A stretch of DNA of 64,000 bases, taken from positions 83,092-147,091 of the forward strand of contig CAZJMY010000792.1 of the NCBI GenBank assembly GCA_964546845.1, given 5' to 3'. This stretch comes from an uncultured Myxococcales bacterium. GTDB taxonomy: Bacteria; Myxococcota_A; Polyangia; Fen-1088. The translations under genes were made by a program, and so were the position numbers. Positions 1,070 to 34,644 of the stretch are shown here, piece by piece (the stretch's first letter is position 1; every line of letters starts with the position of its first letter). The notes beneath the pieces are model-generated. The model made no database searches. It was not told the DNA's origin and worked only from the letters and a program-made list of their open reading frames with translations.

Positions 1070-1966
1070 TCAACGCGCCGGGAACTGTCCGTTGAAAACG
1101 AGATTCCAGTACGAGAACGCGACGTCGATCTTACCAGCGATTTCTGCATCGATCGCGGCCACGGCCTTATCAGCAGCGTATGCGGCATGTTCAGTGAGCG
1201 AACGGCGCTGCGCTTCGGTCGAAGCCGCCGGAATCCAGCCTGCGATGCCGAGCGGGTCCGTCAAAGCCGCTCCCTTGCGATCTCGGAGCAGCCGGAACGC
1301 GTCCACCAAGCAATTCTGATAGGCCTTCGCGCCCACGCACGGTTGCCCCGCCGCCAAGAGCATTTCGAGATGGAATCCGAGGACGGGGATCTTCGGCTCA
1401 CGTGCATACTTCCATGCTTTCAGGAGGCGAATGGTCTTCGATAGCTTGAAGGCGGATCGCGCGTCCTCGCCTCTCAAGTACTTGGTGTGCCGTCCCGGAG
1501 ATGTCCGTCTCCAGCCTCCGGTGCCGTCCGGGATCTCGAACACGGGGTACTGTGGGCTGGTGTCGGTGGTCCCGACCCACACCCCAGGCACAACATCGAC
1601 CGCACCGACGCCCTGTCCGAATCCGACCACGGCGGCGGGACCATCGATCCACACCGCGGTACCAGGAAACCGCGCCTTCAAGGCAGACTTGGTTCGCTCC
1701 AGCGTCGTCGATGAGGCCACGCGGCTGCCACCCCGGGTCACGTCTGCAACACCGACTTTGGCAAAGTAGTCCACATCGCTCCGGACGTGGATCGCGGAGT
1801 CGCGCGTATGGCTACCGATCACGAGCAGCTCGTTGAAGTTCTTGAACTCCGATTGCATTGCCTGCTCGATTGTGCGGCGATGCGCCTTGCGCTGGTTGAC
1901 CTCCGTCTCCGACGGCTCGATCTTCGCCAGAAATGCCTGGATCGCTTCGAACACCGACCTCGCCAT
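1070..1966 (-). CDS. SMODS / CD-NTase-like nucleotidyltransferase (Pol-beta fold)
   Basis: 'LLVIGSHTRDSAIHVRSDVDYF' gives GS-x11-DxD. The third acidic residue sits in 'GAVDVVPGVW'. 'GGWRRTSPGRHTKYL' and 'IRLLKAWKY' follow, matching the motif order of SMODS/CD-NTase-type enzymes. It is the last gene of a three-gene minus-strand unit. Confidence 0.75.
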   Translation of the reverse strand: MARSVFEAIQAFLAKIEPSETEVNQRKAHRRTIEQAMQSEFKNFNELLVIGSHTRDSAIHVRSDVDYFAKVGVADVTRGGSRVASSTTLERTKSALKARFPGTAVWIDGPAAVVGFGQGVGAVDVVPGVWVGTTDTSPQYPVFEIPDGTGGWRRTSPGRHTKYLRGEDARSAFKLSKTIRLLKAWKYAREPKIPVLGFHLEMLLAAGQPCVGAKAYQNCLVDAFRLLRDRKGAALTDPLGIAGWIPAASTEAQRRSLTEHAAYAADKAVAAIDAEIAGKIDVAFSYWNLVFNGQFPAR

Positions 1967-3678: not shown

Positions 3679-3699
3679 GATTCCTCCTTGGCCTTTTGA

Positions 3700-3719
3700 C
3701 TGTTGCATAACACTAAACA
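3700..3719 (-). promoter_or_regulatory. Operator-like 20-mer, copy 1 (plus-strand CTGTTGCATAACACTAAACA) upstream of the coiled-coil gene
   Basis: 19/20 identical to 4153-4172. It lies about 20 nt upstream of the ATG at 3678, in the 87-bp gap after the XRE gene. Confidence 0.6.
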
Positions 3720-3765
3720 AGGTCCCCGAGCCAAGCGCCGAAGGGCCCCCCCAGCTCGCATTTGT

Positions 3766-4137
3766 CTACGAGTCGTACCCGGACCGATCGCTCGACGAGT
3801 GACGCCGCTTGATCTCGGTGATCAGCTGTTCGAAATCTTCTGAGGTCAGCCGCAGTGTCATGGCGGTCCTCAAGAATTCAGGCACGTTCGGGACGAGGTT
3901 CATGAACTCGGCGATGTCGGGATCCGTGCTATCGGCTAGCCGAAAAAGCAGATCTGCATCCCCGCCAAAAAGGCGCGCCATCTTCTTTACGAGTTCGGGT
4001 TTCGGCGGTCGCTCCTTCCCCCGCTCGATCCGGCTCAAGTAGGCCGGCGAAATCCCGAGGCGTTCGGCAGCTACACGAAGACCGAGATCTTGCGCTTCCC
4101 GCATCTCCCGGATCGTCTCTCCGAATCCTTTCGACAT
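3766..4137 (-). CDS. XRE-family helix-turn-helix transcriptional regulator (123 aa) with C-terminal extension
   Basis: 'LGLRVAAERLGISPAYLSRIERGKERP' is a classic XRE/Cro HTH. Start moved to the ATG at 4137, with an AGGAG-type SD (CAGGAGCC) upstream. It is the first gene of the minus-strand trio. Confidence 0.85.
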   Translation of the reverse strand: MSKGFGETIREMREAQDLGLRVAAERLGISPAYLSRIERGKERPPKPELVKKMARLFGGDADLLFRLADSTDPDIAEFMNLVPNVPEFLRTAMTLRLTSEDFEQLITEIKRRHSSSDRSGYDS

Positions 4138-4152
4138 CGACCCTTGTGGCTC

Positions 4153-4172
4153 CTGTTGCACAACACTAAACA
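4153..4172 (-). promoter_or_regulatory. Operator-like 20-mer, copy 2 (plus-strand CTGTTGCACAACACTAAACA) upstream of the XRE gene
   Basis: 19/20 identical to 3700-3719. It occupies the same position relative to its downstream start codon (about 15-20 nt upstream). Confidence 0.6.
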
Positions 4173-4278
4173 CATGTTGGACGGTTGTCAAGCCCCGCCG
4201 TTGTGCGCCTGGTACGCAGCGGTGTAGCTTGGCATCGCTTGGCAGGTTCTACCTGCGGGTGAGTCTGGGAGCCGCTCC

Positions 4279-4482
4279 GTGCCAGATGACGAGATCCTGA
4301 CGCTGAAGGAGGTCGCGCATCTCCTGAAGGTCGCCGAGAAGACCGTCTACACCATGTCCCAGAACAAGGAACTGCCCGCTTTCAAGGTCCGCGGGCAGTG
4401 GCGGTTTCGCCGCGAGGACATTGATAGCTGGATCGACGAGCAGACGAAGAGAAAGGCCGCCGGGGGGACATCCGATGGGTAG
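4279..4482 (+). CDS. Excisionase-family / MerR-like HTH DNA-binding protein (67 aa)
   Basis: 'LTLKEVAHLLKVAEKTVYTMSQNKELPAFKVRGQWRFRREDIDSWI' matches the HTH_17 excisionase-type pattern. It is the first ORF of the long plus-strand operon. Confidence 0.8.
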   Translation: MPDDEILTLKEVAHLLKVAEKTVYTMSQNKELPAFKVRGQWRFRREDIDSWIDEQTKRKAAGGTSDG

Positions 4483-6571
4483 ACGGGCCGCGTCGAAGCA
4501 GCACAGCTCCGTGGACGATGATGTCGACACCGCGGACACAGGGGCTGCCGCGACCGACGACCAGGCCACGCGAGCTGGCGATGAAGTCGAGGTCGTCCAG
4601 GATGGCCGCCTGCTCGACTTCATCTCGGGCACGAGGGAGCTGAAGGACACGCCGAAGGAGCAAGTGCGCCAGCGCATCGCGCGCGCTCTCTTCCACGAGT
4701 ACGGGATCTCCATCGAAGACATGGAGGCCGACTTCTCGGTCAGCGTCGGCGGTCGCCGCCGTCGTGTGGACATCGCGATCTTCAGGCCCGGCCAGCCACA
4801 CGCTCAGGAGAACCTGCGCCGCGTCGTCGTCTGCCGACCCGAGCCGACGCAGAACAAGCGGGGCGCGGTCAAGATGCGCGACTACGATCAGGCTGCGAAG
4901 GACCTCGAGGAGATCAAGCCGTTCTTCGAGGAAGTGGATGGCTGCCAATACGGGCTTTGGACCAATGGCCTCGAGTTCTTCTTCCTGAAGAAGAAGGCGA
5001 CGAAGTTCCAGATCGATGCCGAACCGATCGGCGACTGGCCTCCAGGCGACGAGTCGATCGGCACGAGGGACGTGTTCTCATATGCCCGGGTGCGCCGCGC
5101 CGATCCTGAGATGCTTCGGACGGCGTTCCGCCGCTGCCACAACTTCATCCACGGCAACGAGGGCATGCCGAAGGACGCCGCTTTCTGGCAGTTCCTGTAC
5201 CTCATCTTCTGCAAGATGCACGACGAGCGAGCGGCGCGAGATCGGCGCAAGTTCTGGGCGGGCCCTCAGGAGCAGTTCACCGACGCGGGCCGCAAGGAGA
5301 TCCAGAAGCGGATTCTCCCTCTCTTCGAGGAGGTCAAGCAGGAGTACAAGGCCATCTTCCGGGAGAGCGACGAGATCACGCTCTCGCCCCGCGCGCTGGC
5401 CTTCATGGTTTCGGAGCTCGCGAAGTACGAATTCACGCGCATCGACGTCGACGCGAAAGGTGCCGCGTACCAGGAGATCGTCGGGACAAACCTCCGCGGC
5501 GACCGCGGCCAGTACTTCACTCCGCGCGGTGCAATCCGGCTGGTGGTGCAGATCCTCGACCCGAAAGAGCACGAGAAAATCCTCGACCCTGCGTGCGGCA
5601 CAGGTGGGTTCCTCGTCGCCACGCTCGCGCACATGATGGGCCGCTTCCGAGAGGCGGCGAAGATCCGCGCCGACGCGGAGACCTCCGAGGAGTTCGAGTC
5701 GCTGCACGCGCGCCTGCGGAAATTCGCGACCAACCAGCTGTTCGGTTGTGACTTCGATCCGTTCCTCATCCGGGCCAGCCAGATGAACATGGTGATGGCG
5801 GGCGACGGGAAGGGTCACCTTTACCACCTCAACTCGCTCGAGTTCCCGAACGGCCACCTCGTCGGCGTCAAAACAGCGGAGCGTCACATCAAGCTGGGCA
5901 CGATGGACGTCGTGATGACCAACCCGCCGTTCGGGTCGGAAATCCCCATCACGGACGACAACGTCTTAAAGGAGTACGACCTCGCGCACGTCTGGGAGAA
6001 GGCCGAGGACGGCACCTTCCGCATGACGCCCCGTCTTCAGGGCAGCGTCGCGCCCGAGGTGCTGTTCATCGAGCGCTGCCTCGACTGGCTCAAGCCCGGC
6101 GGACGCATGGGCATCGTCCTGCCCGATGGCATCCTCGGCAATCCCGCGGCCGAGTACATCCGCTACTGGATCCTCCGAAACGCGTGGGTGCTGGCCAGCG
6201 TAGACCTGCCCGTCGAGACGTTCATCGTCGAGGCCAACGTCAACATCCTCACGAGCCTCCTTTTCCTCAAGAAGAAGCCGCCAGAGGTGATCAACCGCGA
6301 GGGGCTTCGCGGCAAGCGCGACGACTACCCCGTCTTCATGGCCGTCGCCGAGAAGGTCGGCTTCGACCGGCGCGGCAACACGCTCTTCAAGCGCTCTCCC
6401 GAAGGTGAGGAGTTGACCAAAGACGTGGAAGAAGTAGAGACGATCACGGTGGGTGGTCGGAAGGTGGCCAGGACGCTCCGCCGCAAACAGAAGATCCTCG
6501 ACGACGACCTTCCGGTGATCGCCGACCGCTACCGCGCTTTTCGACGCGAGAACCCGGAGCCAGGGACGTGA
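4475..6571 (+). CDS. N6-adenine DNA methyltransferase (HsdM-like, gamma class) with HsdR_N-like N-terminal module, paralogue 1
   Basis: Motif I 'ILDPACGTGGFLV' and motif IV 'VVMTNPPFGSE' are present. The N-terminus 'EQVRQRIARALFHEYGI...RRRRVDIAIF' resembles the HsdR N-terminal fold. The start is ambiguous (ATG 4421 or ATG 4475); 4475 has a GGGGGGA SD and overlaps the upstream stop by 8 nt. Confidence 0.9.
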   Translation: MGRRAASKQHSSVDDDVDTADTGAAATDDQATRAGDEVEVVQDGRLLDFISGTRELKDTPKEQVRQRIARALFHEYGISIEDMEADFSVSVGGRRRRVDIAIFRPGQPHAQENLRRVVVCRPEPTQNKRGAVKMRDYDQAAKDLEEIKPFFEEVDGCQYGLWTNGLEFFFLKKKATKFQIDAEPIGDWPPGDESIGTRDVFSYARVRRADPEMLRTAFRRCHNFIHGNEGMPKDAAFWQFLYLIFCKMHDERAARDRRKFWAGPQEQFTDAGRKEIQKRILPLFEEVKQEYKAIFRESDEITLSPRALAFMVSELAKYEFTRIDVDAKGAAYQEIVGTNLRGDRGQYFTPRGAIRLVVQILDPKEHEKILDPACGTGGFLVATLAHMMGRFREAAKIRADAETSEEFESLHARLRKFATNQLFGCDFDPFLIRASQMNMVMAGDGKGHLYHLNSLEFPNGHLVGVKTAERHIKLGTMDVVMTNPPFGSEIPITDDNVLKEYDLAHVWEKAEDGTFRMTPRLQGSVAPEVLFIERCLDWLKPGGRMGIVLPDGILGNPAAEYIRYWILRNAWVLASVDLPVETFIVEANVNILTSLLFLKKKPPEVINREGLRGKRDDYPVFMAVAEKVGFDRRGNTLFKRSPEGEELTKDVEEVETITVGGRKVARTLRRKQKILDDDLPVIADRYRAFRRENPEPGT

Positions 6572-8586
6572 GCGACGAGCTCGACGAGCAGGCCGAAGGT
6601 GAAGCGGAAGAGGAGTCCGAGAGCGAGTCCGAAGCTCTCATCGACATCCTCACCGGGCAGGCGATCGCGCCGTCGGCGAAGAACCGATTGGTGCAGAAGG
6701 TCGCGCGTCAGCTCCTCGAGAGCTATGGCTTCGACCGCGCCGACATCAAAGTCGGGTACCGGCTTACGACGGCGGGCAAGCGTGGGAAGTCGGTGGACAT
6801 CGCGATCGTGCGCCACGGGATGGAGCCCTGTGACGAGAACATCGAGCGCGTCATTGTCTGCCAGCCGCAGAAGGCACGCGAGAAGCTTCGCAGCCCAGAG
6901 GAAGCCGCGCCCGACCTGCGCAAGCTGCACGAGAAGCTGGAGCTGTTCCCCAAGTGCCACCTCGGCATGTGGACCAACGGGCACGAGGAGTTTTTCGTTC
7001 GCGCGGAGGACAAGACGTTCGAGACGCGCTTCTCGAACATCGGTGCGTGGCCCGCCCCCGGCGAGCGCACCGACGACGTGCTCAAAGAGGGCGGCGCGAC
7101 GCAGGTCCCTGCTGATCCCGAAGATCTCGAAGCCGCGCTCCGACGCTGCCACCAATACCTGACCAAGAACCGCCTTCTCGGCGCGGATGCGTTCAAGCCA
7201 CTCGGCGCGCTGCTCCTCGCCAAGCTGTACGACGAGACGCTTCCACGCTCAGAGCGCAAGTTCTGGATCCGCGGCGACGAGCCGTTCACCGCGGCGGGAC
7301 AGGAGGCCATCCGCCAACGCGTAGCGGCGTGCTTCGAGGCGGGGCGGGCCTGGCAACCGAACGTCCTTCTCCACGGCTGGGACCTCGGCTATCTGAACGC
7401 TGCGCAGTTGGCGCGCGTGGCGACGGAGCTCGCTCGGTACTCGCTCGCCGACAGTCTGCCCCTGAGCCGGACGTTTGCGTTTCGTGCAGGCGCAGCCTCG
7501 ACGATGGATGGCAAAGAGGGCCGCTACCCGACGCCGATCAACGTCGCGCAGATGGCGGTCTCGATACTTGACCCTGGACCGGGCGATCGCGTCTTCGATG
7601 GCTCGGCCGGCACAGGGACGTTCCTCGCCATGGCAGCGACGCACGTCTTCGGAAAGCTTCTCACTGACCTCGGTGCGACGCTCGATACGGCGTCATCCGA
7701 CCAGCTACGCGAGGCACAGGTTCGCACTGCCGCGTGGGCGAAGGAGCACGTCTTTGGCTGCGACCTGTCGCAGTCCTTGGTCGTGACGTCGCGCCTGAAC
7801 ATGCTGCTCACGGCGGGGCAGGCGGGGAACGTCTTCCACGTCGATGCTCGCACCTTCCCGGACGGCGATCTCGAGGAACTGGACCGCGCGCGCACCGTCA
7901 TCCCGACCGAGAGCATGGATATCGTTCTCACGAACCCGTGGTTCAGCACCAAGGACACGATCAAGGAGGAGGCGATCCTCCGACGGTTCCGGCTCGGGCT
8001 CGAATGGAAGCGCACCGAAGAGGGTCACTTCGTGGAGAACGGCGCACTCAACACGGCCGGCGTGCCCCCCGAGGTTCTGTTCCTCGAACGCGCGTGGCGG
8101 TGGGCGAAGCCGGGTACAGGTCGCATTGCCATCCTGCTGCCCGATGGGCTCCTCGGAAATCCGAGCGACGAATACGTGCGCTGGTGGATACTCAAACATT
8201 GCGAGGTCCTCGCCGGTGTCGACCTCCCTATCGAGCCGTTTAAGGTCACCCTGAAGGACTACCGGCTGACGCCAGCTCTGCCCAGCCTTCTCGTCCTTCG
8301 ACGCCGCAGCCAAGAGGAGCTGCTTCACACGAGTCACCCCGACTACTGGGTATTCATGGCCGTGGTGAACCGCGCGGGCGTCGACGCCCGCGGCAACAAG
8401 CTCTTCCAACGAAAGCCGGACGGCGAGGAGCTGATTGTCGATGAGAAGGTAGTCGAGCGGGTTCGTGTCGGCGGGCAGGTGGTAGCGCGCCGGATCGTGC
8501 GCAGACAGTCGCGCATCGACGACGAGCTTCCGGTCGTGGCCGAGCACTACCGGCGGTTCGTCGATGGCGGTCGGAGGGGACCGTGA
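6568..8586 (+). CDS. N6-adenine DNA methyltransferase-like protein, paralogue 2, with non-canonical motif IV (NPWF)
   Basis: Motif I is 'VFDGSAGTGTFLA'. Motif IV is 'IVLTNPWFSTK' where NPPF/Y is expected. It has the same HsdR_N-like N-terminus as paralogue 1 ('NRLVQKVARQLLESYGF...GKSVDIAIV'). The GTG start overlaps the upstream TGA (GTGA). Confidence 0.85.
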   Translation: MSDELDEQAEGEAEEESESESEALIDILTGQAIAPSAKNRLVQKVARQLLESYGFDRADIKVGYRLTTAGKRGKSVDIAIVRHGMEPCDENIERVIVCQPQKAREKLRSPEEAAPDLRKLHEKLELFPKCHLGMWTNGHEEFFVRAEDKTFETRFSNIGAWPAPGERTDDVLKEGGATQVPADPEDLEAALRRCHQYLTKNRLLGADAFKPLGALLLAKLYDETLPRSERKFWIRGDEPFTAAGQEAIRQRVAACFEAGRAWQPNVLLHGWDLGYLNAAQLARVATELARYSLADSLPLSRTFAFRAGAASTMDGKEGRYPTPINVAQMAVSILDPGPGDRVFDGSAGTGTFLAMAATHVFGKLLTDLGATLDTASSDQLREAQVRTAAWAKEHVFGCDLSQSLVVTSRLNMLLTAGQAGNVFHVDARTFPDGDLEELDRARTVIPTESMDIVLTNPWFSTKDTIKEEAILRRFRLGLEWKRTEEGHFVENGALNTAGVPPEVLFLERAWRWAKPGTGRIAILLPDGLLGNPSDEYVRWWILKHCEVLAGVDLPIEPFKVTLKDYRLTPALPSLLVLRRRSQEELLHTSHPDYWVFMAVVNRAGVDARGNKLFQRKPDGEELIVDEKVVERVRVGGQVVARRIVRRQSRIDDELPVVAEHYRRFVDGGRRGP

Positions 8587-9980
8587 AAGAGAAGCTCGTC
8601 CCCAGCGCATTGCTCGAGAAGGAGGGGCGTCGCCTCGACTGCGGCCCCTACCTTTCAGGCGCCATAGAGGCGAAGCTCCTACTTCAAGGACTCTCCGTCG
8701 AGAAAGTGCAACTGAGTCAGGTCACGCTCGACTTGGTCAACGCGGGCCGCATCAAGCGCCTTTGGGTTACCGATGTCGAGAAGGGGGTGCCGTTCCTCAG
8801 CAGCACCGATATCCTCGACGCTGATCTTCGATTCCTCAGCCTCATTTCGAAGCACGCGGTGCGCGACAATCCGAAGCTGACGATCCGAACCGGTTGGACG
8901 CTTGTGACACGCGCCGGGACGATCGGCCGAATGGCCTTCGCGCGACCCGAGATGAATGAAATGGCCTGTAGCGAGGATGTCCTCCGCGTCATTCCCAATC
9001 CCAAGAAGGTGCGGCCGGGCTACCTATACGCCTTTCTTTGCAGCCGGTTCGGCCTTCCGCTCGTCATCGGCGGAACGTACGGTGCCATCATCCAGCACAT
9101 CGAGCCGCAGCACATTGCGGACCTTCCAGTCCCGATCGCCCCCGACCGTATTCAGGAGGCAGCGCACAAGCTCGTCGAGGAGGCCGCCGATCTCCGAACC
9201 AAGGCGTCGGCCGAGCTGCGTGCCGTCATCCGCGACATCGAGAGGACAGCCGACCTTCCGCCGGTGGACAGCCGCTATGACGGCGGCTCGCCTGATATCT
9301 CCATCGTAAAGGCCCAGACCCTCGGCTCGAGAATGGACGGCTTGTTCCACAGCGGCTTCCACCGTTCCGTGCTCGCTCCCCTGCTACGGCTGCCGGCAAA
9401 TCGGAGGGCGACGGTCGGCGATTTCGCGACCCGCGTCTTCGAGCCGCTGAGATTCAAGCGCATCAACGTCGATGACCCAAACCACGGCGTGCCCTTCTTC
9501 GGGACCTCCGACATCATGCGTTCCGAGCCGGTCGCTGGTCAGTACATCGTGAAACGTACACCTGGGCTCGATGATCTGGTCGTCAGCCCCAGCACCATCC
9601 TGATCCCGCGCTCAGGTCAGCTCGTAGGGATCATCGGGCACGCCGTTCTTCCTCACGGCGACATTGTCGGAGGTGCCGTGAGCGAAGACGCCATTCGCGT
9701 GGTGGCGCCCGACGACGCGACAGCTGGATACCTCTTTGCCTGCATCTCGTCGGAGTATGGGCGACGCCAGCTCAAGGCTCGCGCATTCGGATCGTCGATT
9801 CCACATCTCGACGTGCGGATGATCCGCTCGACAGTCGTCCCTCGCCTCTCTGACGACTCGATCAAGAGCCTCGGGCTGCGCGCGTTCCAGGTGGCAGTAG
9901 CGCGCTCAAATGCAGTCCGCAACGAGCGCGAAGCGAGAGCCGTCGTGGAGCGCTGGATCGAACGGAAGGGGGCGTCCTGA
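8583..9980 (+). CDS. Type I R-M-like specificity (S) subunit with two target-recognition halves
   Basis: There are two internally repeated halves. Each has a 'GVPFLSSTDI / GVPFFGTSDI' entry, a 'LVTRAGTIGRMA / LIPRSGQLVGII' core and a 'GYLYAFL / GYLFACI ... IQHIEPQHIADLPVP / IPHLDVRMIRSTVVP' tail, as in Methylase_S domains. The GTG start overlaps the upstream TGA. Confidence 0.8.
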   Translation: MKEKLVPSALLEKEGRRLDCGPYLSGAIEAKLLLQGLSVEKVQLSQVTLDLVNAGRIKRLWVTDVEKGVPFLSSTDILDADLRFLSLISKHAVRDNPKLTIRTGWTLVTRAGTIGRMAFARPEMNEMACSEDVLRVIPNPKKVRPGYLYAFLCSRFGLPLVIGGTYGAIIQHIEPQHIADLPVPIAPDRIQEAAHKLVEEAADLRTKASAELRAVIRDIERTADLPPVDSRYDGGSPDISIVKAQTLGSRMDGLFHSGFHRSVLAPLLRLPANRRATVGDFATRVFEPLRFKRINVDDPNHGVPFFGTSDIMRSEPVAGQYIVKRTPGLDDLVVSPSTILIPRSGQLVGIIGHAVLPHGDIVGGAVSEDAIRVVAPDDATAGYLFACISSEYGRRQLKARAFGSSIPHLDVRMIRSTVVPRLSDDSIKSLGLRAFQVAVARSNAVRNEREARAVVERWIERKGAS

Positions 9981-12900
9981 TGGCCCGAGTCATCGCCATC
10001 GGCCAGCCAGTGAACGACTCTGAGCGCGAGGCGATCGCGTTTCTTCGGGATCACCTGCCGAACAGCTACGTCGTCATCCACAACTTCGAGCTGAAGCAGG
10101 GCCACGAGCTCTACGAGATCGATATCGCGCTCCTCGCGCCGCACGCCGTCTTCGTTATCGACGTGAAGGGGACGCGCGGTCTGATCGACGTCTATGGGGC
10201 CAAGTGGTACCCGGAGGGCCGCGCGCCGTACCACTCGCCGCTCGCCATCCTCCGCAAACACGCCAAGGCGCTGAAGACGTTCATCTGCGATCAGCATCCT
10301 GCCGACACCGCGCTGCGCGGCGTGTATGTCGACGCCGCGGTGCTCATGACGGACCCCGGGGCTCACGTTCAAGACGCGGCCGGCCAGGACGGTCCGTCGG
10401 TCGCCTACCTCAAGAAGTGCGCCGCGTTCTTCCAGGACAAGTCACGTGTGCCGGGGACGTTCTCCTCGGACATCCGAGCCAAGCTCGGCGTCGTCGAGCA
10501 GGCGGTCGTCGGGCGTGCGAAGCCGAAGAGCGCGCCGCCCTGCTATGGGAACTGGCAGGTCGAGGAGAAGCTCGGTGGGACCGACCGATACACGGAGTAC
10601 CGCGCGAGGCACACCCTCCTCGGGGCGCGTCGTGGCGGCACCGCCCGGCTGCGCCTCTACCAGGTCGACGCCTACGTGCCGACAGAACGCCAGCGGCAGG
10701 TGAAGCTCATCAGCAACGCCTACCGCTCCCTGGCCGGCCTGCCGGGCCACCCCAACATTCTATCGGTCCGCGAGTTCTTCGACGATGAAGACGCGAAGAA
10801 CTGGGTCGCGCTCGTGACTGGGGACGTCGCCGGCCAGGCGCTGCGGCAGCACATCAAGAAGAGCAGTCTCGCGCTCACCTACGATCAGAAGCTCGCTGTC
10901 ATCCGTGATGTTCTCGCTGCACTCGATCACGCCCATCGAAACGAGCCCCAGGTCATCCACCGCAACATGACCCCGGACGCGGTGCTCATCAGCAACGCGG
11001 GGCGCGCCCTTCTCTGCGGCTTCGACTACGCGCGGGCTGGCAAGGACCGGACGAGCACTATCGCAGAGGACATCGTCGACGAGATCGATACGATCTACCA
11101 GTCGCCCGAATGCTACCGCGATCCATCGAAGGCGAGCGTCGCATCGGACCTCTACTCCGCTGGTCTCGTCTTCTACGAGCTGCTCGTTGGCGAGCCGCCC
11201 TGGTCGTCGGTCGACGACATGCTCGAGAAGGATGCCCTCTTCCCCGTCAAACCGTCCGAGGTCAAGCCCGAGCTGCCGGCCGGGTTGAACGAGTGGCTCC
11301 AGTGCCTCTGCGCCTTCGATGTCGAGAGCCGACCCAGCAGTGCCGCCGTGGCGCTCGCGCGATTCAACGACATCGTCGGCCCGGATCCACGAGAAGCAGC
11401 GAAGGCCAAGAAGGATGCGCTCCCCCCTTCTCCGCCGCGCCCGGAAATCGAATACGAGGTTCTTCAGCGCGGCACCGAGCTCGCTAACCGTTTCCGCGTC
11501 GAGGAGAAGCTCGGCTCGGGAGGCTTCGCCGTCGCCTACAAAGTGTTCGACTCCTACGCGGATACGGCGCGCGTCCTCAAGGTCATCGTAAAGGACCGGC
11601 GCTCGACGTTCCAGCGCATGAAACAGGAGTACCGGCTTCTGTCCCGTTTGGACGAGCCTCATCCGAACGTCGTTCACGTACTTTGGGCCGACAAGCTGCC
11701 AGACGAGACCCCCTACATGGTCTTCGAGTACGCGGCCGGGCTCGACGTGGGCGAGATGCTTAGCGCAGGCGCGCTTTCGCTGGAGGACGTGCGACGCATC
11801 GCCAACGACACGCTTGCTGGCCTCGAGCACCTGCACAGGAACGGTATCTTCCATCGCGACATCAAGCCGTCCAACCTCCTCTGGACCGACCAGGGTGTCC
11901 GAATTTTCGATTTCAATGTCGCCGTCCACGAGGACGACGGAGAAGCGCGCGCTGGCGGAACCCGCCGGTATATCCCGCCCGACGTGGAACTGGGCGAGAT
12001 ACTCGCCGCCGAGGACGAGATCGACCGCGACTTGTACGCGCTCGGAATCACGATCTACGAATGTGCGACCGGCAAGTACCCGTGGACGGAGATCACGCCG
12101 CCACCCAAGGTCGCCCCGACCGATCCGCGAACCCACGTCGCCGATCTCAGTCCGGAGTTCAGTCAGCTCATCGTCAAGGCGATCGCTCCTCGGAAAGCCG
12201 AGCGGTTCTCGTCGGCCGCCGAATTCCGCGCCGCGCTCGCGAGCGTGTCGAAGTTGCGTGTCTTGGCGCCGTCGCCTGCGGTGAACGTCGCGCCGAAGGC
12301 TGAAACGCCGCCGTCGCTTTCGGTCCTCCAACCTTCCAAGCCCAACTTCAATCCATTCGTCAGCCACCTGCTGACGATGTACAGCCAGAGCACGCACACG
12401 AATGCTGGCACTCGCAGCCTCGGCACTATTGGGCGCGAGACCTACGTGAAGACGCTGCTCGACGAGAAGCTGCGTCCCGCCGTTCTATCTGGCGAGTTTC
12501 GCCTCGTCATCGTCACTGGCAACGCCGGCGATGGGAAGACGACGTTCATCCAGCAGATCGAGCGCAAGATCGCCTCCGGGTTGAAGCAGCTCTCGAATGG
12601 GTCGGAGTTCGTCCTCAACGGCAGGCGGTTCCTCACGAACTACGACGGCAGTCAGGACGAAGATGATAAGGCCAACGACGACGTGCTGGAGGAGTTCCTG
12701 AAGCCATACGAGGGACGCGACGCCAGCAGCTGGCCCACCGACGAGACACGGATCATCGCCATCAATGAGGGGCGCCTCGTCGACTTTCTGACGGAGCGCG
12801 AAGAGCGGTTCACGCACTTGAAGCGGCTCGTCCTCGCTGGCCTCGGTGGTGCTCGAGCCTCGGACGGCGTCGTTACCGTGAACCTCAACCTGCGAGCCAT

Positions 12901-14119
12901 CGTGGCGAACCCGCCGGGGGCAGCCGCGGACTCGGACTCCATCTTCGACCGGCAGTTACGACGTCTGGTGCACGAACAGTTCTGGGAGCCGTGCGCCACA
13001 TGCGACATCCGTGACCGTTGCTACGTCTTCCACAACGCGCGCACGCTCATGGACCCGGTTTCGGGCCCAAAGATCGCGGAGCGGCTGCGCGGCCTATACG
13101 CGATCACTCACCTGCGGGGCCGCCTCCACCTCACGATGCGCGATTTGCGTTCGGCGCTCGCGTTTACGATCGCCGGCACGCGCGACTGCGACGAGATTCA
13201 CGCTCTCTATTCGAGGCCGGGACCAGAAGCTCGGCGGCAAATCCTCGAAGGTTTCTATTTCAACTCCTGGCGCGGCGGCGAAGGCTCGGCGGACCGTCTT
13301 CTCTCATTGCTCCGAGAGATCGACGTTGGCGAGGCGACCAACCCGGACATCGATCGCGCCCTCGACTACTTGCCGCCCAGCGCGCGAGAGATGGCGAGAT
13401 TCTCGTTTGCCCACCGCGGCGACTACGACTCGCAGCTACTCGATCGAATGCACGGCGAACTTCCGCGCGATTCGGCGATTGGAACCGCCTGGCAGCGTGT
13501 CAGCGACCATCGCGAGTACGTCGCGATGTTGCGGCGGCGCCAGTTCTTCGAGCGCCGCGACGACAAGTGGGAAGAGATGCTGCCGTACCGGAAGTGGAAC
13601 GAGTTTTGGCGCCTCGTGACGGGAAAATCTGAGCCCGCGATCTACCTCGACGACCTACTCACGGCCATCAACCGCGGCGAGGGGCTCAGCGACCCCAAGC
13701 GCCTCGGTAACACGCTGGCGCTTCGGGTGCGCGTGGTCGAGCACGGCACGATTCGCAGCTACCGACTTTTCCCGGGCGACAAGTTCCAGCTCGTCTTGCC
13801 GACCACCGGGAGCAACGACTTCGTCGAGCACATCCCGCAGACGCTGCGGCTCATCTACTCGTCGCCATCGGGGCACCAGGCGGAGCTGCTGGTCAGCCTG
13901 GATGTCTACGAGATGCTGGCGCGGCTGAATGACGGCTACCGGCCGAGCCTCGAGGAGCTGCAGGGCTACTACCTGAGCCTCGCGGTGTTCAAGAACGTGC
14001 TTGCTTCGGCCCCCTACCAGGAGGTGCTTCTCACCCGGACGGGTCACGACTTCTACCGCGTCCGGCGCGAGGCCGCGGGAACGCTGTACCTCGAGGCGCT
14101 CGAGGGAGGGGCGAGCTGA
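9980..14119 (+). CDS. NERD domain + degenerate kinase + Ser/Thr protein kinase + C-terminal P-loop NTPase fusion protein (1379 aa)
   Basis: The N-terminus 'EREAIAFLRDHLP...YEIDIALLAPHAVFVIDVKG' is a NERD/PD-(D/E)xK-like domain. Kinase-like domain 1 has 'VIHRNMTPDAVL' and 'CGFDYA'. Kinase domain 2 has 'GSGGFAVAY', 'ARVLKVI', 'FHRDIKPSNLL' and 'IFDFNVA'. A Walker A 'VIVTGNAGDGKTTFIQ' is followed by 'RIIAINEGRL'. The ATG shares its A with the upstream TGA (TGATG). Confidence 0.85.
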   Translation: MARVIAIGQPVNDSEREAIAFLRDHLPNSYVVIHNFELKQGHELYEIDIALLAPHAVFVIDVKGTRGLIDVYGAKWYPEGRAPYHSPLAILRKHAKALKTFICDQHPADTALRGVYVDAAVLMTDPGAHVQDAAGQDGPSVAYLKKCAAFFQDKSRVPGTFSSDIRAKLGVVEQAVVGRAKPKSAPPCYGNWQVEEKLGGTDRYTEYRARHTLLGARRGGTARLRLYQVDAYVPTERQRQVKLISNAYRSLAGLPGHPNILSVREFFDDEDAKNWVALVTGDVAGQALRQHIKKSSLALTYDQKLAVIRDVLAALDHAHRNEPQVIHRNMTPDAVLISNAGRALLCGFDYARAGKDRTSTIAEDIVDEIDTIYQSPECYRDPSKASVASDLYSAGLVFYELLVGEPPWSSVDDMLEKDALFPVKPSEVKPELPAGLNEWLQCLCAFDVESRPSSAAVALARFNDIVGPDPREAAKAKKDALPPSPPRPEIEYEVLQRGTELANRFRVEEKLGSGGFAVAYKVFDSYADTARVLKVIVKDRRSTFQRMKQEYRLLSRLDEPHPNVVHVLWADKLPDETPYMVFEYAAGLDVGEMLSAGALSLEDVRRIANDTLAGLEHLHRNGIFHRDIKPSNLLWTDQGVRIFDFNVAVHEDDGEARAGGTRRYIPPDVELGEILAAEDEIDRDLYALGITIYECATGKYPWTEITPPPKVAPTDPRTHVADLSPEFSQLIVKAIAPRKAERFSSAAEFRAALASVSKLRVLAPSPAVNVAPKAETPPSLSVLQPSKPNFNPFVSHLLTMYSQSTHTNAGTRSLGTIGRETYVKTLLDEKLRPAVLSGEFRLVIVTGNAGDGKTTFIQQIERKIASGLKQLSNGSEFVLNGRRFLTNYDGSQDEDDKANDDVLEEFLKPYEGRDASSWPTDETRIIAINEGRLVDFLTEREERFTHLKRLVLAGLGGARASDGVVTVNLNLRAIVANPPGAAADSDSIFDRQLRRLVHEQFWEPCATCDIRDRCYVFHNARTLMDPVSGPKIAERLRGLYAITHLRGRLHLTMRDLRSALAFTIAGTRDCDEIHALYSRPGPEARRQILEGFYFNSWRGGEGSADRLLSLLREIDVGEATNPDIDRALDYLPPSAREMARFSFAHRGDYDSQLLDRMHGELPRDSAIGTAWQRVSDHREYVAMLRRRQFFERRDDKWEEMLPYRKWNEFWRLVTGKSEPAIYLDDLLTAINRGEGLSDPKRLGNTLALRVRVVEHGTIRSYRLFPGDKFQLVLPTTGSNDFVEHIPQTLRLIYSSPSGHQAELLVSLDVYEMLARLNDGYRPSLEELQGYYLSLAVFKNVLASAPYQEVLLTRTGHDFYRVRREAAGTLYLEALEGGAS

Positions 14120-15783
14120 TGGGCATCAAGGGCCGAGACCAGGAGTTCAGCCTGAAGAAGCTCTCCTACATCGATTTCAAGCCCCTGAACATGGACAGGG
14201 TGCTCACGATGCTCTTCCCGCGGTTGCGCTTCGGCGGCTACGGCACGCGACGCCCGCCGAGGAAGAACGAGCTGACGGTCGGCGATTTCGCTCGCGAGTA
14301 CCTCAAAGATCCGAAGATGTTTGTCGGCTTCGCCGAGCATCAGGACGTCGTCGAACGGTGGATCGAGACCGATCTCATGGACATGGTGAACCGCGGTCGG
14401 CCAAATCAGGCCCTCGCGGCACCGCGCCCGCTGCACGGGAACACATACAAGTTCCGCAACGCTCGCCATGCACGGGATTACGGCGCGGCCGAGCACCTGT
14501 ACTGGATGCTCTACTATGCCCGCGACGGGCGTGGGCAGACCGCTCGCGATGCGCTCACTCGCTTCTTCTTCCCTGGCGTGGATCTCCACACGGACAAGTA
14601 CGACCCGTCAGCGTCGGTCGACGTCGAGACCCAGGCGCTCCTCCACTTCGACCGGCAGGTCACGGTGGACACGCGGGACTCGCAGGACCCCGATCGCTTC
14701 CCGCCCTTGTGCGTGGGCCAGGTGGATCTGCTAGCGGACGATACGCTGCGCCTGCTGGCTTATGAGCCCTACATCCCGCGCTCGGTCCTCGTCGAGTACC
14801 TGAAGACTCTCTTCGCGTTCCACCTCGGGCTGTACCACCTTCGACTGATCAAGCTCCTGCCCTCGCTCGTTCGTAGGCGCGGGGCAGATCCGATCTGCGA
14901 GCCCAAGAATTGCCCGGTTGCGCCGGGCGATCTTCAGGCTCACGGCGGCTGCCCGTACCGCGTCTACTTGCTCGTGGATCTTGGGAACGACCTCGACAGC
15001 CACATGGCCAGCCTGGCGAGACACAGCGCCGACGTCCATTACCGCCGCATCCCCAACTACATCGCAGCCCATTACCTCGTCCGCAAGCTTGACGAGTTCG
15101 CCGACTACTTGAGCAAGAAGATCGGCAAGCTCGCGGCGCCGCCAAGCGGCTTCTTTGGGATCGGAGACTTGCTCCGCCTCCTCGAACCACCGTTCGCGGG
15201 CGAGCGCGACGGCTACTTCAAAATGCGACTGGCCGGCCTTCTGGAGGACACCGCTGGCGAAACGCGAGAGGAAATCGATCCAGAGGTTCGGCGTGTCACC
15301 GAGATGGGGCTCAACGACCTCGACATGTTCATCGAGATCCTGATGGCGGTGCGGGGCTCCTATCACCGCAAGTACATCACCGAGTTCCTCGACTCAGTGT
15401 TCAAGCGGGGCGACGCCGGCGCCATGCACCAGTCAAGGGGGAGCGCGCGACGATTCTCGATGGGAAGTCTTCTGCTCGAGGTTCTTCTCCAGATCGCGGT
15501 TCTCCGCCCCACGGCGACGAGCTTCTACACGCGCGAGCTTCGCATCGATGAGCTGCTGACGTTCCTGCAGCAGCGCTACGGGCTCTACATCGACCGCCTT
15601 CCACCTGGAGACGGTTTCGGCACGGCAAGCATCAACGACCTTGCCGCGCTCCGCGGAAACGCGGAGCGCTTCAAGGCGAGGCTGCAGGAGATTGGCTTCT
15701 TCCGCGACCTCTCCGACGCGTACATCACGCAGACGATCACGCCCCGCTATGCCATCGCGGCCCCGACTGGAGCTGCGCGATGA
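14119..15783 (+). CDS. Hypothetical protein (554 aa), no recognisable motif; middle gene of the putative restriction arm
   Basis: A long ORF translationally coupled at both ends (TGATG at 14117-14121, ATGA at 15780-15783). I could not recognise any catalytic motif. Confidence 0.7.
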   Translation: MGIKGRDQEFSLKKLSYIDFKPLNMDRVLTMLFPRLRFGGYGTRRPPRKNELTVGDFAREYLKDPKMFVGFAEHQDVVERWIETDLMDMVNRGRPNQALAAPRPLHGNTYKFRNARHARDYGAAEHLYWMLYYARDGRGQTARDALTRFFFPGVDLHTDKYDPSASVDVETQALLHFDRQVTVDTRDSQDPDRFPPLCVGQVDLLADDTLRLLAYEPYIPRSVLVEYLKTLFAFHLGLYHLRLIKLLPSLVRRRGADPICEPKNCPVAPGDLQAHGGCPYRVYLLVDLGNDLDSHMASLARHSADVHYRRIPNYIAAHYLVRKLDEFADYLSKKIGKLAAPPSGFFGIGDLLRLLEPPFAGERDGYFKMRLAGLLEDTAGETREEIDPEVRRVTEMGLNDLDMFIEILMAVRGSYHRKYITEFLDSVFKRGDAGAMHQSRGSARRFSMGSLLLEVLLQIAVLRPTATSFYTRELRIDELLTFLQQRYGLYIDRLPPGDGFGTASINDLAALRGNAERFKARLQEIGFFRDLSDAYITQTITPRYAIAAPTGAAR

Positions 15784-18700
15784 GCACCGGCTTCCGTGCG
15801 CTACCCGGCGCGGATGTCACCCGCGCGGTAGAGGAGCTCCTCTTGCCGCGCCTCGCGGGCGCGCTTCGGGAGAAGGCGGCCGGTCACTGCATGCGCGTGA
15901 CCGACTTGGACCGGGACCTGATGGTCGCTCTCGCCAAGGGGTTGCGAAAGGAGGCCCCAGGCGCATCCGTATACGTTCTGGCTGACGGAGCGGCAGGAGG
16001 CGACGACCTCTGCGTTTCGTCGACAAAGCTGGTCGAGCTCCGCAACCCCCAGGCAGATGGCTCGCTGCGCTCGCCGCTCTGCGTCTTCTTGCCCGCGAAC
16101 GTGCGCACCAGCGCGGAGGATTCCTTCGGGCGAGCGACGTTTGAGGAGTTCCCGGTGGGCGACTCATACCAAGCGCTCTGCCGTCGTCTCCTCGAGCGTG
16201 TACCGGCGACGCTTCAGGGCTATGTCCGGGACGTGCTCCAGTACCTCGCCAACCAGGCATGGCGCTGGGCAAACGCCATCGGCCAAGTCCGCTACCTTCT
16301 CTGCGCTCTTGCCAACGGCAACGATGGCGAGGCCTTCGGCGGTGCGCTCTACGAGCTGGGGCTCGTGCCAGACTTCAAGCTGTTCGACGATCCCACGACC
16401 TCGTACGGACGCATCCGCAAGAACCTCGAGTGCGTCCGGATGCTCACCGACTCCGACCAGTCGATCCGATCGCGGGTGCTCGAGCTTGGCCTGATCAACA
16501 AGGGCCTACGGAGGCGTCTTGCCGAGTACCTCGTCGAGGCAGGCGTCGAAGATCCATCCGCGTGGACACGTGAGGTGGTCCTCAACAAGACCAACTGGGA
16601 CCTTTCGTTCGACAAGTGGGAGTTCGCGTCGGAGATCGCTCCCGACAAGATTTCATTCCTGCGCGTTGAGACCGATCTCCCCGTCGTCGCCGAGAACGAG
16701 AAGAGCGAGCGCCTCATCGACCTCGTCGGGCAGCAAGTCCTCGCCCCGAAGGAGCGGCGGCAGTTCAATGTGACTGTCGAGGTCAAGCCGCATCCCGGCC
16801 AGGTCCAGGGCCTCGAGCACTTCACCGTTCAGATCATGTCTCGGGACTCTGGCCCGGTGGGCGTTGCCCGCAAGGTCAAGGTCTGGAAGGCACCGCGGGC
16901 AACCTGCACGGTTTCATTCACCAAGCTCAACAAGATCGAGTTCGAAGAGGGATGGCACTTCGTCCGCGTCCTCCCCTGGACCGCAGAAGGTGATCCAATA
17001 CCGATCGAAGAGCCGACCGAGCAGGCCGCGAAGCGCTCCAACGAGAGCGAGCCCTTCTACGTCTTGCCCGACGCTGACCTCGAAGAGGAACCACCGCAGC
17101 GAGCCATCCCTAAAGCAGACAGCGTGGAGCATGCGCGGATCGATCGCCAGTTCACGGCCGTCCTTCAGCGCCGCGACGCACTCGCGGTCCGCCCCGAGAG
17201 CATCGGCTGGTCGCAGCGAACCACGCAGGGAAGGCTGGCCGCACAGGAAACCATCGAGGCGAAGTTCGGAAAGGAAGGCGCGTTCCAGATCGCCGTCGCC
17301 CGATGGATGAAGCACATCGAGCAGCGGATCCTCTCCAACCCGGAACGACCGGTGAGCTGGCGGATGCAGATCCACCTTGGTCAACCGGAGTTCCCAACGG
17401 GCGACATCGCAGAATGGCCTGCGTCTACGGCGGTGCGCAGCTTCCTCGACGCACGTGCGACGTACTTCGCTCGCGTGCTGCAGGGCACGAAAGAGCTCGT
17501 TTCTCAGGGGCTCGACTTCCTCTCGGCGGCGCCCGAGATCGTCGCTTACGCAGGCGCCTACGTTGACCTCGTCAAAGACTTCTCAGCCAAGGTCGAACGC
17601 GAGGCCGGTGCAGACCAGCTCAAGGCCATCATCGCACTGCGTACCGCGCTTGCCGTCGACTCGGTCCGGCTCGTCGTAGAGGATTACCGCGGGCACGTTC
17701 GGGAAGCCGCTCTTCTCGGTCCAACACACCCGCTCCGCGCCCTCCAGCAACTTGGATGGGCGCAGCTCGGGGCAGCGTGGGTGCGCACGACTGCAAAGGG
17801 TCCGGAGGAGCACGTCAGCCCCGCACGCGACGCGCTTCTCCGAGGCATCTCGTCGGCGAATTTCCCGCCGATGCTTCCGACCAGCGACGGCCGCGTTTTC
17901 CTAGCGGTCGACAACATCCATCCGTTTTGGGTGCTCTATGCACCTGCAACCGAGGAAGATCCGCGAGGGCTCCTGGGCGACATCTGTGCCGCACTCGGGC
18001 TGCCAGAGCCGTCAATTGGCGGCGCCGTCATCACAGGCGACGTTCTGGCCTCGCGAGTCGAGCGCTACCTGGTGCAGCACCCGTATGTGCGTACCCTGAC
18101 GGTCAACGCCTTCAACCCCGGACGCGCCACGGTGCTCGCGGGCGCGCTGACGTCGCTGCAGCGCCAGGAGGCATTCAAAGACCTCCGATACGACCTGCGC
18201 CTGTTCGTACCTGACCCGGACGCACCGGGCGTTGGCGAGGCCATCACGTCGCTACTCGCAGGCGAGGGGACAGCCGCTGGCGAGGCCTTCTCGATCCCGA
18301 GTCGCAGTCACGTCTTCCCGAAGCTCAACGTCGCCGTCCGATCCACGAAGGACTTCAGGGCCGACCCGATGCGCTACAGGGCGCACCTCAGTTTCCTCTT
18401 CGAGGTGTTCCCGCCTGAGGAAGTCGCTGCCGGACGCCCGTTCCGCCCGGAGCGAACGGTGCCTCTTCATGGCTTGGTCCAGGACTTCGCGGTGCGCTTC
18501 CGTGACGACGACACAGGAACGGGCTGGGAGCGGCAGCCGCGGCACGGGGCGCCCCTGGCCATCGAGGCAGGCGAGGACACCTCTGCGCTGCTCGGCGCGC
18601 TCCCGACGCTCATCTCGGCGGCCACGGCAACCGTGGCGAGGGCAACTCCTGACTTCGCGTCACGACCAATCATTCGACTCGAGCTGGACGCCGATGAACG

Positions 18701-30654: not shown

Positions 30655-30655
30655 T

Positions 30656-34637: not shown

Positions 34638-34644
34638 TTGATCC

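Follow-up and report, generated by a model that had tools for sequence, protein, structure and literature searches.

MAD6 of a MADS operon in an uncultured Myxococcales bacterium: NERD, pseudokinase and kinase modules preceding a DndF/SspF-type core

The methylation-associated defence system (MADS) has been validated experimentally in Pseudomonas aeruginosa SMC4386, where mad2–4 and mad6–8 were needed for protection (Maestri et al., bioRxiv 10.1101/2023.03.30.534895; journal version in Cell Host Microbe, 2024). Phages escaped this system epigenetically, and an N6-methyltransferase was predicted (bioRxiv 10.1101/2023.03.30.534895). Maestri et al. searched other genomes with a MacSyFinder model that requires MAD6, MAD7 and MAD8 as markers and treats MAD3 and MAD4 as accessory; they had already observed that operons differ in completeness and that some genes are duplicated (bioRxiv 10.1101/2023.03.30.534895). 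The present work describes MAD6, which with MAD7 and MAD8 makes up the signature gene set of MADS, together with its operon and its surroundings, in a stretch of 64,000 nucleotides, hereafter the window, from an uncultured Myxococcales bacterium (assembly GCA_964546845.1, contig CAZJMY010000792.1, positions 83,092 to 147,091 of the forward strand). The operon, MAD1-MAD2a-MAD2b-MAD5-MAD6-MAD7-MAD8, is a complete MADS of a subtype without MAD3 and MAD4.

Two further groups of proteins are relevant for the comparison. According to Rakesh, Aravind & Krishnan (NAR 2024, PMC10853773), the core of DndF is a derived P-loop kinase whose Walker A is canonical, whose Walker B carries Asn and whose strand 2 is followed by an acidic residue. 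A helical extension is present at its N-terminus, the lid of about 200 residues comprises 12–13 helices and may hold a Zn insert behind the first of them, and an alpha+beta domain closes the C-terminus (PMC10853773). The coupling of DndFGH to phosphorothioate (PT) modification genes is often absent (PMC10853773). The MAD6-like architecture has already been published as an N-terminally extended DndF (PMC10853773). In PglW, the N-terminal half shows an "identical tripartite arrangement" (Rakesh & Krishnan, NAR 2026, PMC12839542), and the C-terminal half consists of a domain like the C-terminal domain of the RNA polymerase alpha subunit, three winged helix-turn-helix (wHTH) domains and an inactive STAND domain (PMC12839542).

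Identity and modules of MAD6

The open reading frame (ORF) of the putative kinase started with ATG and had no internal stop, and its G+C content, about 0.64, was like that of the flanking DNA. Its product scored 761.6 bits (cutoff 460, E 6e-229) with NF047741 (antiphage_MADS6), an equivalog that bears the name "methylation-associated defense system protein kinase MAD6" in NCBIfam. This match was confined to aa 1–623, and the PADLOC mad6 profile was matched at 1.5e-104 over aa 141–805. More than 100 full-length homologues of 1372–1390 aa, with 55–90% identity, were present in the databases, and assembled contigs from two public sequencing runs encoded the exact protein next to the same neighbouring genes. 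The ORF is almost certainly MAD6 with the four modules described below. The preliminary description of this DNA, made from the letters alone, had delimited these modules, but the protein was not identified there as MAD6, a component of MADS that already had a name.

The N-terminus corresponded to a NERD domain (Pfam PF08378, aa 13–109, E 2.2e-15, 57.5 bits against a gathering cutoff of 22.1), in which the motifs quoted in the preliminary description were located at aa 46–51 (EIDIAL) and 60–64 (IDVKG); an alpha/beta core was observed for this region in the AlphaFold2 model. Residue conservation was counted in an alignment of 73 full-length MAD6 relatives, taken from 50%-identity cluster representatives. 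Since D48, (D/E)61 and K63 were present in 73/73 and E15 in 71/73 of these proteins, the PD-(D/E)xK catalytic set of the NERD domain is intact, and nuclease activity is predicted.

Besides NERD, the Pfam scan detected Pkinase in two stretches (E 3.8e-57), the best of them at aa 506–745, and weak P-loop matches at aa 817–871. The first kinase-like domain could be aligned residue by residue with StkP and with the PknB kinases of Staphylococcus aureus and Mycobacterium tuberculosis at about 4e-15. This comparison showed that HRD was replaced by HRN (N329), the catalytic-loop Lys by Thr, the Asn of the same loop by Ala, DFG by GFD and the VAIK Lys by Arg223, and that the Gly loop was degenerate, reading GGTDRY. 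Of the 73 relatives, only 12 retained the HRD Asp and 20 the DFG Asp, none had the catalytic-loop Lys, and all of them kept the structural residues H327 and R328. On these residues the domain is classified as a conserved pseudokinase, which may still bind a nucleotide. The earlier claim of a pseudokinase, which had been made from HRNMTPDA (aa 327–334) and CGFDYA (aa 346–351), was thus borne out in a proper alignment, where domain 1 lacked the catalytic residues, and so was the claim of a NERD-type N-terminus.

The second kinase domain presented a Gly-rich loop (G512-x-G514-G515) and a canonical catalytic loop (H625-R-D627). The VAIK Lys K534, the HRD Asp D627, the catalytic-loop Asn N632 and the DFG Asp D644 were each conserved in 73/73 relatives and the alphaC Glu E550 in 72/73; the DFG position reads DFN, and its third residue was N in 48/73 and G in 23/73. 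The best relatives in a sequence search of the PDB were bacterial Hanks kinases (PknB/StkP structures, about 1e-24). Domain 2 is, on these grounds, a catalytically complete Hanks-type kinase and is predicted to be active, in agreement with the preliminary description, which had pointed to GSGGFAVAY (aa 512–520), RVLKVI (531–536), HRDIKPSNLL (625–634) and FDFNVA (643–648). The AlphaFold2 model of the N-terminal part (pLDDT 79.4; pTM 0.43, multi-domain) placed low-confidence linkers (pLDDT below 50) at aa 475–488 and 764–790. The boundaries proposed earlier (aa 1–115, 190–470, 500–760 and the last 550 or so) agreed with the AlphaFold2 models.

The C-terminal part had been described only by its Walker A, GNAGDGKTT, which was found at aa 847–855, and by the suggestion that it be compared with DptF and PglW. 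The first comparison proved apt. With the C-terminal 579 aa (aa 801–1379) as the query, PADLOC returned SspF at 1.1e-23 (aa 29–416 of the fragment) and DndF/DptF at 2.1e-9; in the NCBIfam scan of the whole protein at E≤0.01, no DptF/SspF model was among the matches. When 1.84 billion representatives were searched exhaustively with the C-terminal region, 1067 relatives were obtained at E≤1e-3, and these fell into several length classes: about 1300–1440 aa (the full MAD6 type), about 880 aa (one kinase plus an SspF-type core) and about 590 aa. The SspF/DndF profiles were matched over the entire length of the stand-alone relatives of about 590 aa, which showed 31–38% identity. By these matches, the C-terminal 580–590 aa or so are assigned to the SspF/DndF family.

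The residues that define this core were also conserved. The motifs YSQS..N.GTR, GNAGDGKT, D889, IIAIN/N929, NLNLR and R1054 were invariant, either as far as Bacteroidota orthologues of 28–30% identity or in 73/73 relatives; G847, K853, T854, N929 and D889 were each found in 73/73. Regarding the lid, C1005, C1008, C1014 and R1054 were present in 73/73 relatives and C1070 in 71/73, and the alpha+beta domain at the C-terminus was moderately conserved as far as Bacteroidota. The AlphaFold2 model of aa 781–1379 (pLDDT 79.9, pTM 0.82) showed N-terminal helices, a P-loop core, the lid and the alpha+beta domain, an arrangement that agrees with the one published for DndF (PMC10853773). In this model, N929 of Walker B ended a strand predicted at 922–928, N887-Y-D889 followed the strand 882–887, the cluster C1005/C1008/C1014 lay between early lid helices, and the lid comprised about 16 helices over about 255 aa, with pLDDT mostly between 80 and 90.

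A sequence search of the PDB with the C-terminal 599 aa gave no real relative, the match to TsaE (E 0.46) being a generic P-loop match. Matches to "Pizza" designer propellers (whole-sequence E about 1e-7) were discarded as repeat artefacts, sums of per-repeat matches with E of at least 17. Foldseek comparison of the C-terminal model with the PDB retrieved no solved DndF; the best matches (ORC/Cdc6, MoxR and TsaE; best E 0.012, TM 0.18–0.25) were generic P-loop folds, compatible with the P-loop kinase or with the AAA+/STAND class. The assignment of the core to a fold class is founded on structure prediction and on the published analysis.

By its N-terminal half, the protein could be taken for PglW, the kinase (Ser/Thr-specific) of type 2 BREX (bacteriophage exclusion; Pgl). 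Both PADLOC PglW (9.5e-77) and NCBIfam BREX_PglW (1.5e-72) were indeed matched, and the same NERD-pseudokinase-kinase triad is present in PglW (PMC12839542). Nevertheless, this identity was rejected, because the NF033442 score, 244.9 bits, fell far short of the cutoff of 990, and the match to the PglW profile covered only positions 9–770 of 1403. Annotated PglW genes borne on plasmids aligned with MAD6 only at aa 15–783, the C-terminal half consists of a DndF/SspF core instead of a wHTH triad with an inactive STAND domain, and the operon contained MAD2, MAD5, MAD7 and MAD8 as neighbours, with no PglX, PglZ, BrxC, BrxD or BrxHI. An identity with PglW is thus extremely improbable. The comparison with PglW suggested in the preliminary description held for the shared N-terminal half and failed for the C-terminal half. 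MAD6 is a PglW-type N-terminal triad fused to a DndF/SspF core.

The MADS operon, related loci and surroundings

PADLOC called mad1, mad2, mad5, mad6, mad7 and mad8 in the operon. The mandatory marker set (MAD6, MAD7 and MAD8) was complete in the window, with the three genes adjacent and above the NCBIfam cutoffs, and the methyltransferase/specificity pair MAD2a and MAD5 and the helix-turn-helix (HTH) protein MAD1 were present above their cutoffs as well. Adjacent genes overlapped by 1 nt (TGATG at 9980 and 14119), by 8 nt (MAD1/MAD2a) or by 4 nt (elsewhere), which indicates that the genes from MAD1 to MAD8 constitute one translationally coupled operon. The coordinates of all the features are collected in Table 1.

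Table 1. Modules of MAD6, genes of the MADS operon and other features of the window (the last row refers to a related locus)
Feature	Position	Strand	Characteristics
MAD6 ORF	9980..14119	+	1379 aa; NERD + pseudokinase + kinase + DndF/SspF-type core; NF047741 match, PADLOC mad6
NERD PD-(D/E)xK nuclease domain, aa 1-~180	9980..10519	+	Pfam PF08378; candidate catalytic E15, D48, D61, K63
Pseudokinase domain, aa ~188-473	10541..11398	+	HRN 327-329, GFD 347-349, R223 replacing VAIK Lys
Hanks-type Ser/Thr kinase domain, aa ~498-760	11471..12259	+	Gly loop 512-517, K534, E550, HRD 625-627, N632, DFN 644-646
DndF/SspF-type P-loop domain, aa ~790-985	12347..12934	+	YSQS..N.GTR helices, Walker A 847-854, NYD 887-889, Walker B IIAIN 925-929
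Enlarged helical lid, aa ~986-1243	12935..13708	+	Cys cluster C1005/C1008/C1014/C1070, LHxTxRDLRS motif
C-terminal alpha+beta domain, aa ~1244-1379, plus stop codon	13709..14119	+	AlphaFold2 fragment model with strands and helices (465-594)
MAD1, 67-aa excisionase-type HTH protein	4279..4482	+	NF047737, 91.2 bits vs cutoff 80; PADLOC mad1
MAD2a, N6-adenine DNA methyltransferase	4475..6571	+	NF047738, 1007.5 bits vs cutoff 720; motif I DPACGTG, motif IV NPPF
MAD2b, MAD2 paralogue, degenerate motif IV NPWF	6568..8586	+	NF047738, 699.5 bits, just below cutoff 720
MAD5, Type I-like specificity (S) subunit	8583..9980	+	NF047740, 474.2 bits vs cutoff 400
MAD7, DndG/SspG-like subunit	14119..15783	+	NF047733, 618.7 bits vs cutoff 410; PADLOC mad7 1.8e-118, SspG 4.8e-8
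MAD8, DndH-like, candidate restriction endonuclease motif and C-terminal HerA/FtsK-like ATPase	15780..21254	+	NF047742, 225.8 bits vs cutoff 175
IS3-family transposase without the first ~105 profile positions	42-998	+	left window edge
SMODS/CBASS-like cyclase	1070-1966	-	divergent, upstream of operon
573-aa ORF, no family	1999-3720	-	divergent, upstream of operon
XRE/capH-like HTH	3766-4191	-	divergent, upstream of operon
Tyrosine-integrase-like gene	21410-22681	-	just downstream of MAD8
DUF5677 protein	29077-30861	-
Pnkp	30656-33250	-	RNA-repair pair with Hen1
Hen1	33243-34985	-
RtcR-type sigma-54 activator	35474-37093	+	divergent
SIR2-like protein	39861-40901	-
Extra 560-aa gene between MAD5 and MAD6	Prevotella vespertina locus L008, 7836-9518	+	no NCBIfam family

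The MAD1 gene, which was missed by an ORF list with an 80-aa minimum, was also called on a contig encoding the identical MAD6. MAD2a probably starts with the ATG at 4475, which overlaps the stop of MAD1, and not with the TTG further upstream (4421). MAD2b shared 34% identity with MAD2a and differed from it in motif I (DGSAGTG versus DPACGTG) and in motif IV (NPWF versus NPPF). The NPWF motif was also found in the orthologues of three related loci (L001–L003), and MAD2b was absent from loci L005–L010; this paralogue may be a non-catalytic methyltransferase-like subunit. No NCBIfam or PADLOC profile match for MAD3 or MAD4 was obtained in the operon, and no gene was present between MAD2b and MAD5.

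With regard to the genes downstream of MAD6, the PDB sequence search gave no match for MAD7 and, for MAD8, only HerA-like ATPases at the C-terminus (TdpA 8wet, 5e-5). PADLOC matched MAD8 to mad8 (8e-47), to DndH (4.8e-6) and to HerA. A Pro/Ala/Ser-rich low-complexity stretch (aa ~1290–1425) preceded the HerA/FtsK-like ATPase, and several MAD8 residues were invariant across phyla, namely D1109/H1111, D1127 and D1142...E1154-x-K1156, the last set being a candidate PD-(D/E)xK nuclease as in DndH. A match between MAD7 and DndG with an HHpred probability of 99.5% was reported by Maestri et al. (bioRxiv 10.1101/2023.03.30.534895).

The nearest species-representative orthologues of MAD6 were found in metagenome-assembled genomes of Acidobacteriota (82% identity), Thermoanaerobaculia (80%), Deltaproteobacteria (73%) and Spirochaetia (66%), and orthologues at 28–30% identity were found in Bacteroides, Prevotella and Segatella (Bacteroidota). 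The order MAD2-(MAD2b)-MAD5-MAD6-MAD7-MAD8 was kept in the loci of all these groups. MAD5 was the most divergent gene of the operon, with 38–55% identity to its orthologues versus 66–88% for the flanking genes of the same loci, as expected for a specificity subunit; this suggests that its target-recognition domains are exchanged or diverge rapidly. A Piscinibacter plasmid carried a canonical eight-gene MADS, in which genes for an AAA ATPase and a small protein separated MAD2 from MAD5 and the kinase was 1391 aa long. Since this long kinase belongs to a canonical operon, the four-module architecture is that of a normal MAD6 and not a fusion specific to the window. In the Bacteroidota loci L007–L010, a gap of about 2 kb separated MAD5 and MAD6. 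MAD3 and MAD4 were sought there, and the 560-aa ORF in the gap of the Prevotella vespertina locus, which matched no NCBIfam family, is neither of them. Finally, plasmid pKK1 of Bacillus thuringiensis (locus L015, 5071–19824) contained a MAD6/7/8-like triad of 1352, 531 and 1728 aa, preceded by a single 1308-aa hypothetical protein in place of separate MAD2 and MAD5, which may be a fused or a different modification module.

The gene context bears directly on a second reading of MAD6, as the DndF/SspF subunit of a PT-sensing DndFGH/SspFGH complex, in which self-DNA would be marked by PT and not by methylation. The membership of the C-terminal 580 aa in the SspF/DndF family and the weak matches of MAD7 and MAD8 to SspG and DndH would speak for it. 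Canonical membership in the PT-dependent DptF group was rejected on the MADS-level matches, on the methyltransferase/S-subunit context and on the absence of PT modification genes: no dndABCDE or sspABCD genes were found among the window ORFs scanned, the scans covering part of the ORFs. Moreover, the MAD6-7-8 triad followed an N6-adenine methyltransferase and an S subunit in all of the related loci examined except the B. thuringiensis plasmid, every gene of the operon reached or approached its MADS equivalog cutoff, and the escape of phages from the P. aeruginosa MADS is epigenetic, with an N6-methyltransferase predicted (bioRxiv 10.1101/2023.03.30.534895). PT sensing is accordingly considered very unlikely, and the assignment of MAD6 to MADS is preferred.

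Because an IS3 transposase lies at the left edge of the window and an integrase-like gene beyond MAD8, the operon is placed on a mobile or defence island. A complete MADS operon was thus found together with a CBASS-like cyclase (of the cyclic-oligonucleotide-based antiphage signalling type), the integrase, IS3, Pnkp/Hen1 and a SIR2-like gene. The DUF5677, Pnkp/Hen1, RtcR-type and SIR2-like genes are further genes of stress or defence type. A possible effector of a CBASS-like system is the 573-aa protein; both its ORF and the XRE/capH-like HTH gene also adjoined MADS in L001, and the HTH gene in L003.

A putative mechanism for MAD6-MAD7-MAD8

A scheme can be proposed in which MAD2 and MAD5 would act as a Type I-like methyltransferase/specificity pair, with MAD2a and MAD5 methylating a bipartite host site, and MAD6, MAD7 and MAD8 would form a DndFGH-like restriction complex held off by this methylation. 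MAD7 and MAD8 would bind DNA, which would be translocated by the HerA/FtsK ATPase of MAD8, and unmarked DNA would be nicked or cut by the restriction endonuclease (REase) motif of MAD8, by the NERD domain of MAD6 or by both. The P-loop and lid of MAD6 would serve as a nucleotide-binding sensor or scaffold. The pseudokinase-kinase pair would be an allosteric switch, phosphorylating the complex or itself in order to license or to limit the nucleases. Taken as a whole, the identification of MAD6 as a component of MADS together with this scheme is regarded as highly probable. Its parts deserve separate grades: a methylation-gated DndFGH-like complex is favoured with some reserve, and the role of the kinase pair as an internal switch is a tentative suggestion.

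Several published results are pertinent here. Deletion of mad6, mad7 or mad8 abolishes defence in P. aeruginosa (bioRxiv 10.1101/2023.03.30.534895), and nickase and translocase activities are reported for the DndFGH complex (PMC11662687, PMC10853773). Because of the Asn in its Walker B, the P-loop of MAD6 may serve as a nucleotide sensor or a kinase and not as a motor, a part that probably falls to the HerA/FtsK-like ATPase of MAD8. The coupling of methylation or infection sensing to nuclease action through phosphorylation, as put forward in the preliminary description, would fit the context of a MADS operon.

On the other side, a number of observations weigh against the proposed scheme. The same Walker B Asn makes the hydrolysis of nucleoside triphosphates by the MAD6 P-loop uncertain, and the similarity of MAD7 to SspG (4.8e-8) and of MAD8 to DndH (4.8e-6) is weak. 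The literature search turned up no biochemical work on MAD6, and the restriction mechanism of MADS is listed as unknown in a 2026 review (PMC12904381). In addition, the lethality of a mad5 deletion in P. aeruginosa depends on mad2 or mad3 (bioRxiv 10.1101/2023.03.30.534895), which points to MAD3 as a toxic effector in that host; since MAD3 is absent here, the effector roles may differ between subtypes. The substrates of the kinase may also be phage or host proteins instead of the MAD6-7-8 complex.

A different role for the N-terminal modules has been proposed by Rakesh et al. for the N-terminally extended DndF and for PglW (PMC10853773, PMC12839542). According to it, NERD and the kinase modules would be back-up or suicide effectors, released when the DndFGH-like restriction is blocked. 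Hyper-phosphorylation of host or phage proteins by the kinase, in the manner of Stk2, and degradation of cellular DNA by NERD would lead to abortive infection. The modular nature of the N-terminal fusions, with relatives consisting of the core alone (about 590 aa) or of one kinase and the core (about 880 aa), and the resemblance of the MAD6 kinase domain to the stand-alone PD-T4-6 defence kinases would agree with such a function. Nevertheless, deletion of mad6 abolishes the primary defence of P. aeruginosa, although this deletion also removes the DndF core and does not separate the modules (bioRxiv 10.1101/2023.03.30.534895). At a multiplicity of infection of 10, MADS-bearing cultures grew as well as those to which no phage was added, which argues against a purely abortive role (bioRxiv 10.1101/2023.03.30.534895). 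The near-invariance of the catalytic residues of NERD and of kinase 2 in the 73 relatives fits a core or a back-up function alike. The suicide-effector role is possible, if unlikely.

Returning to the methylation-gated complex, a more specific version of it can be formulated for the subtype without MAD3 and MAD4 (the window and L001–L003). This would be a minimal MADS, a Type I-like methyltransferase/S-subunit module directly wired to a DndFGH-like machine, in which the NPWF-bearing MAD2b, no longer a methylase, would read unmethylated sites and hand them to MAD6-7-8, and the pseudokinase-kinase pair would bring about phosphorylation-licensed cutting by NERD, by the MAD8 REase or by both. This version is speculative and improbable as a whole. 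If true, it would represent the first mechanistic model of MADS restriction and a bacterial parallel to the tandem-kinase immune switches. The value of the present analysis lies in a residue-level conservation map, which comprises D48, D/E61 and K63 of NERD, K534, D627 and D644 of kinase 2, and K853, N929 and the four-Cys cluster of the core.

Comparison with known systems

The closest relative with a known function is the MADS of P. aeruginosa SMC4386. Both systems share an equivalog-level MAD6 and the partners MAD1, MAD2, MAD5, MAD7 and MAD8, and the MAD6 length class of about 1380–1390 aa is common to the window and to the canonical eight-gene operon of Piscinibacter. The operon of the window differs in the absence of MAD3 (an OLD-like ATPase) and MAD4 (DUF4276), both of which are required in P. 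aeruginosa, and in the presence of a second MAD2 paralogue with NPWF for NPPF. Mad6 was described merely as a protein kinase in the MADS preprint (bioRxiv 10.1101/2023.03.30.534895); four modules were resolved here. Methylation-dependent protection against phages, shown only for P. aeruginosa SMC4386, is predicted for the operon of the window.

The N-terminally extended DndF (PMC10853773) resembles MAD6 in its Walker A and Walker B Asn, the acidic residue after strand 2, the very large helical lid, the Zn-type Cys insert in this lid and the alpha+beta domain. In both, NERD and the inactive and active S/T/Y kinase domains precede the core, and DndG-like and DndH-like genes follow. The differences are that MAD6 is tied to an N6-methyltransferase/S-subunit module, being neither stand-alone nor PT-coupled, that it has no N-terminal wHTH before NERD, and that the alpha+beta domain of the MAD6 clade is not especially fast-evolving. 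The similarity of its core to canonical DndF/DptF is weak (PADLOC 2e-9), SspF being closer (1e-23).

PglW of type 2 BREX, or Pgl (phage growth limitation), from Streptomyces coelicolor (NF033442) has an N-terminal NERD, a pseudokinase and an active kinase in the same order as MAD6. Its C-terminal half is wholly unlike the DndF core of MAD6, the BREX gene context is lacking in the window, and the score of MAD6 was far under the family cutoff. As for the PD-T4-6 defence kinases, kinase domain 2 of MAD6 matched their profiles at 4e-71; however, PD-T4-6 and Stk2 are single-domain effectors which phosphorylate many cell and phage proteins, whereas the kinase of MAD6 is one part of a 1379-aa subunit, and the system to which it belongs has seven genes and is based on DNA modification.

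In view of these comparisons, the MAD6 described here is an ordinary representative of its curated family in a named and validated system, with an architecture already in print. The subtype without MAD3 and MAD4, with its conserved and probably non-catalytic MAD2 paralogue, is mildly new and does not represent a new kind of system. Finally, MAD6 joins three themes of bacterial defence in one protein: the PglW triad of type 2 BREX, the DndF core of the phosphorothioate systems and the tandem pseudokinase-kinase switches.

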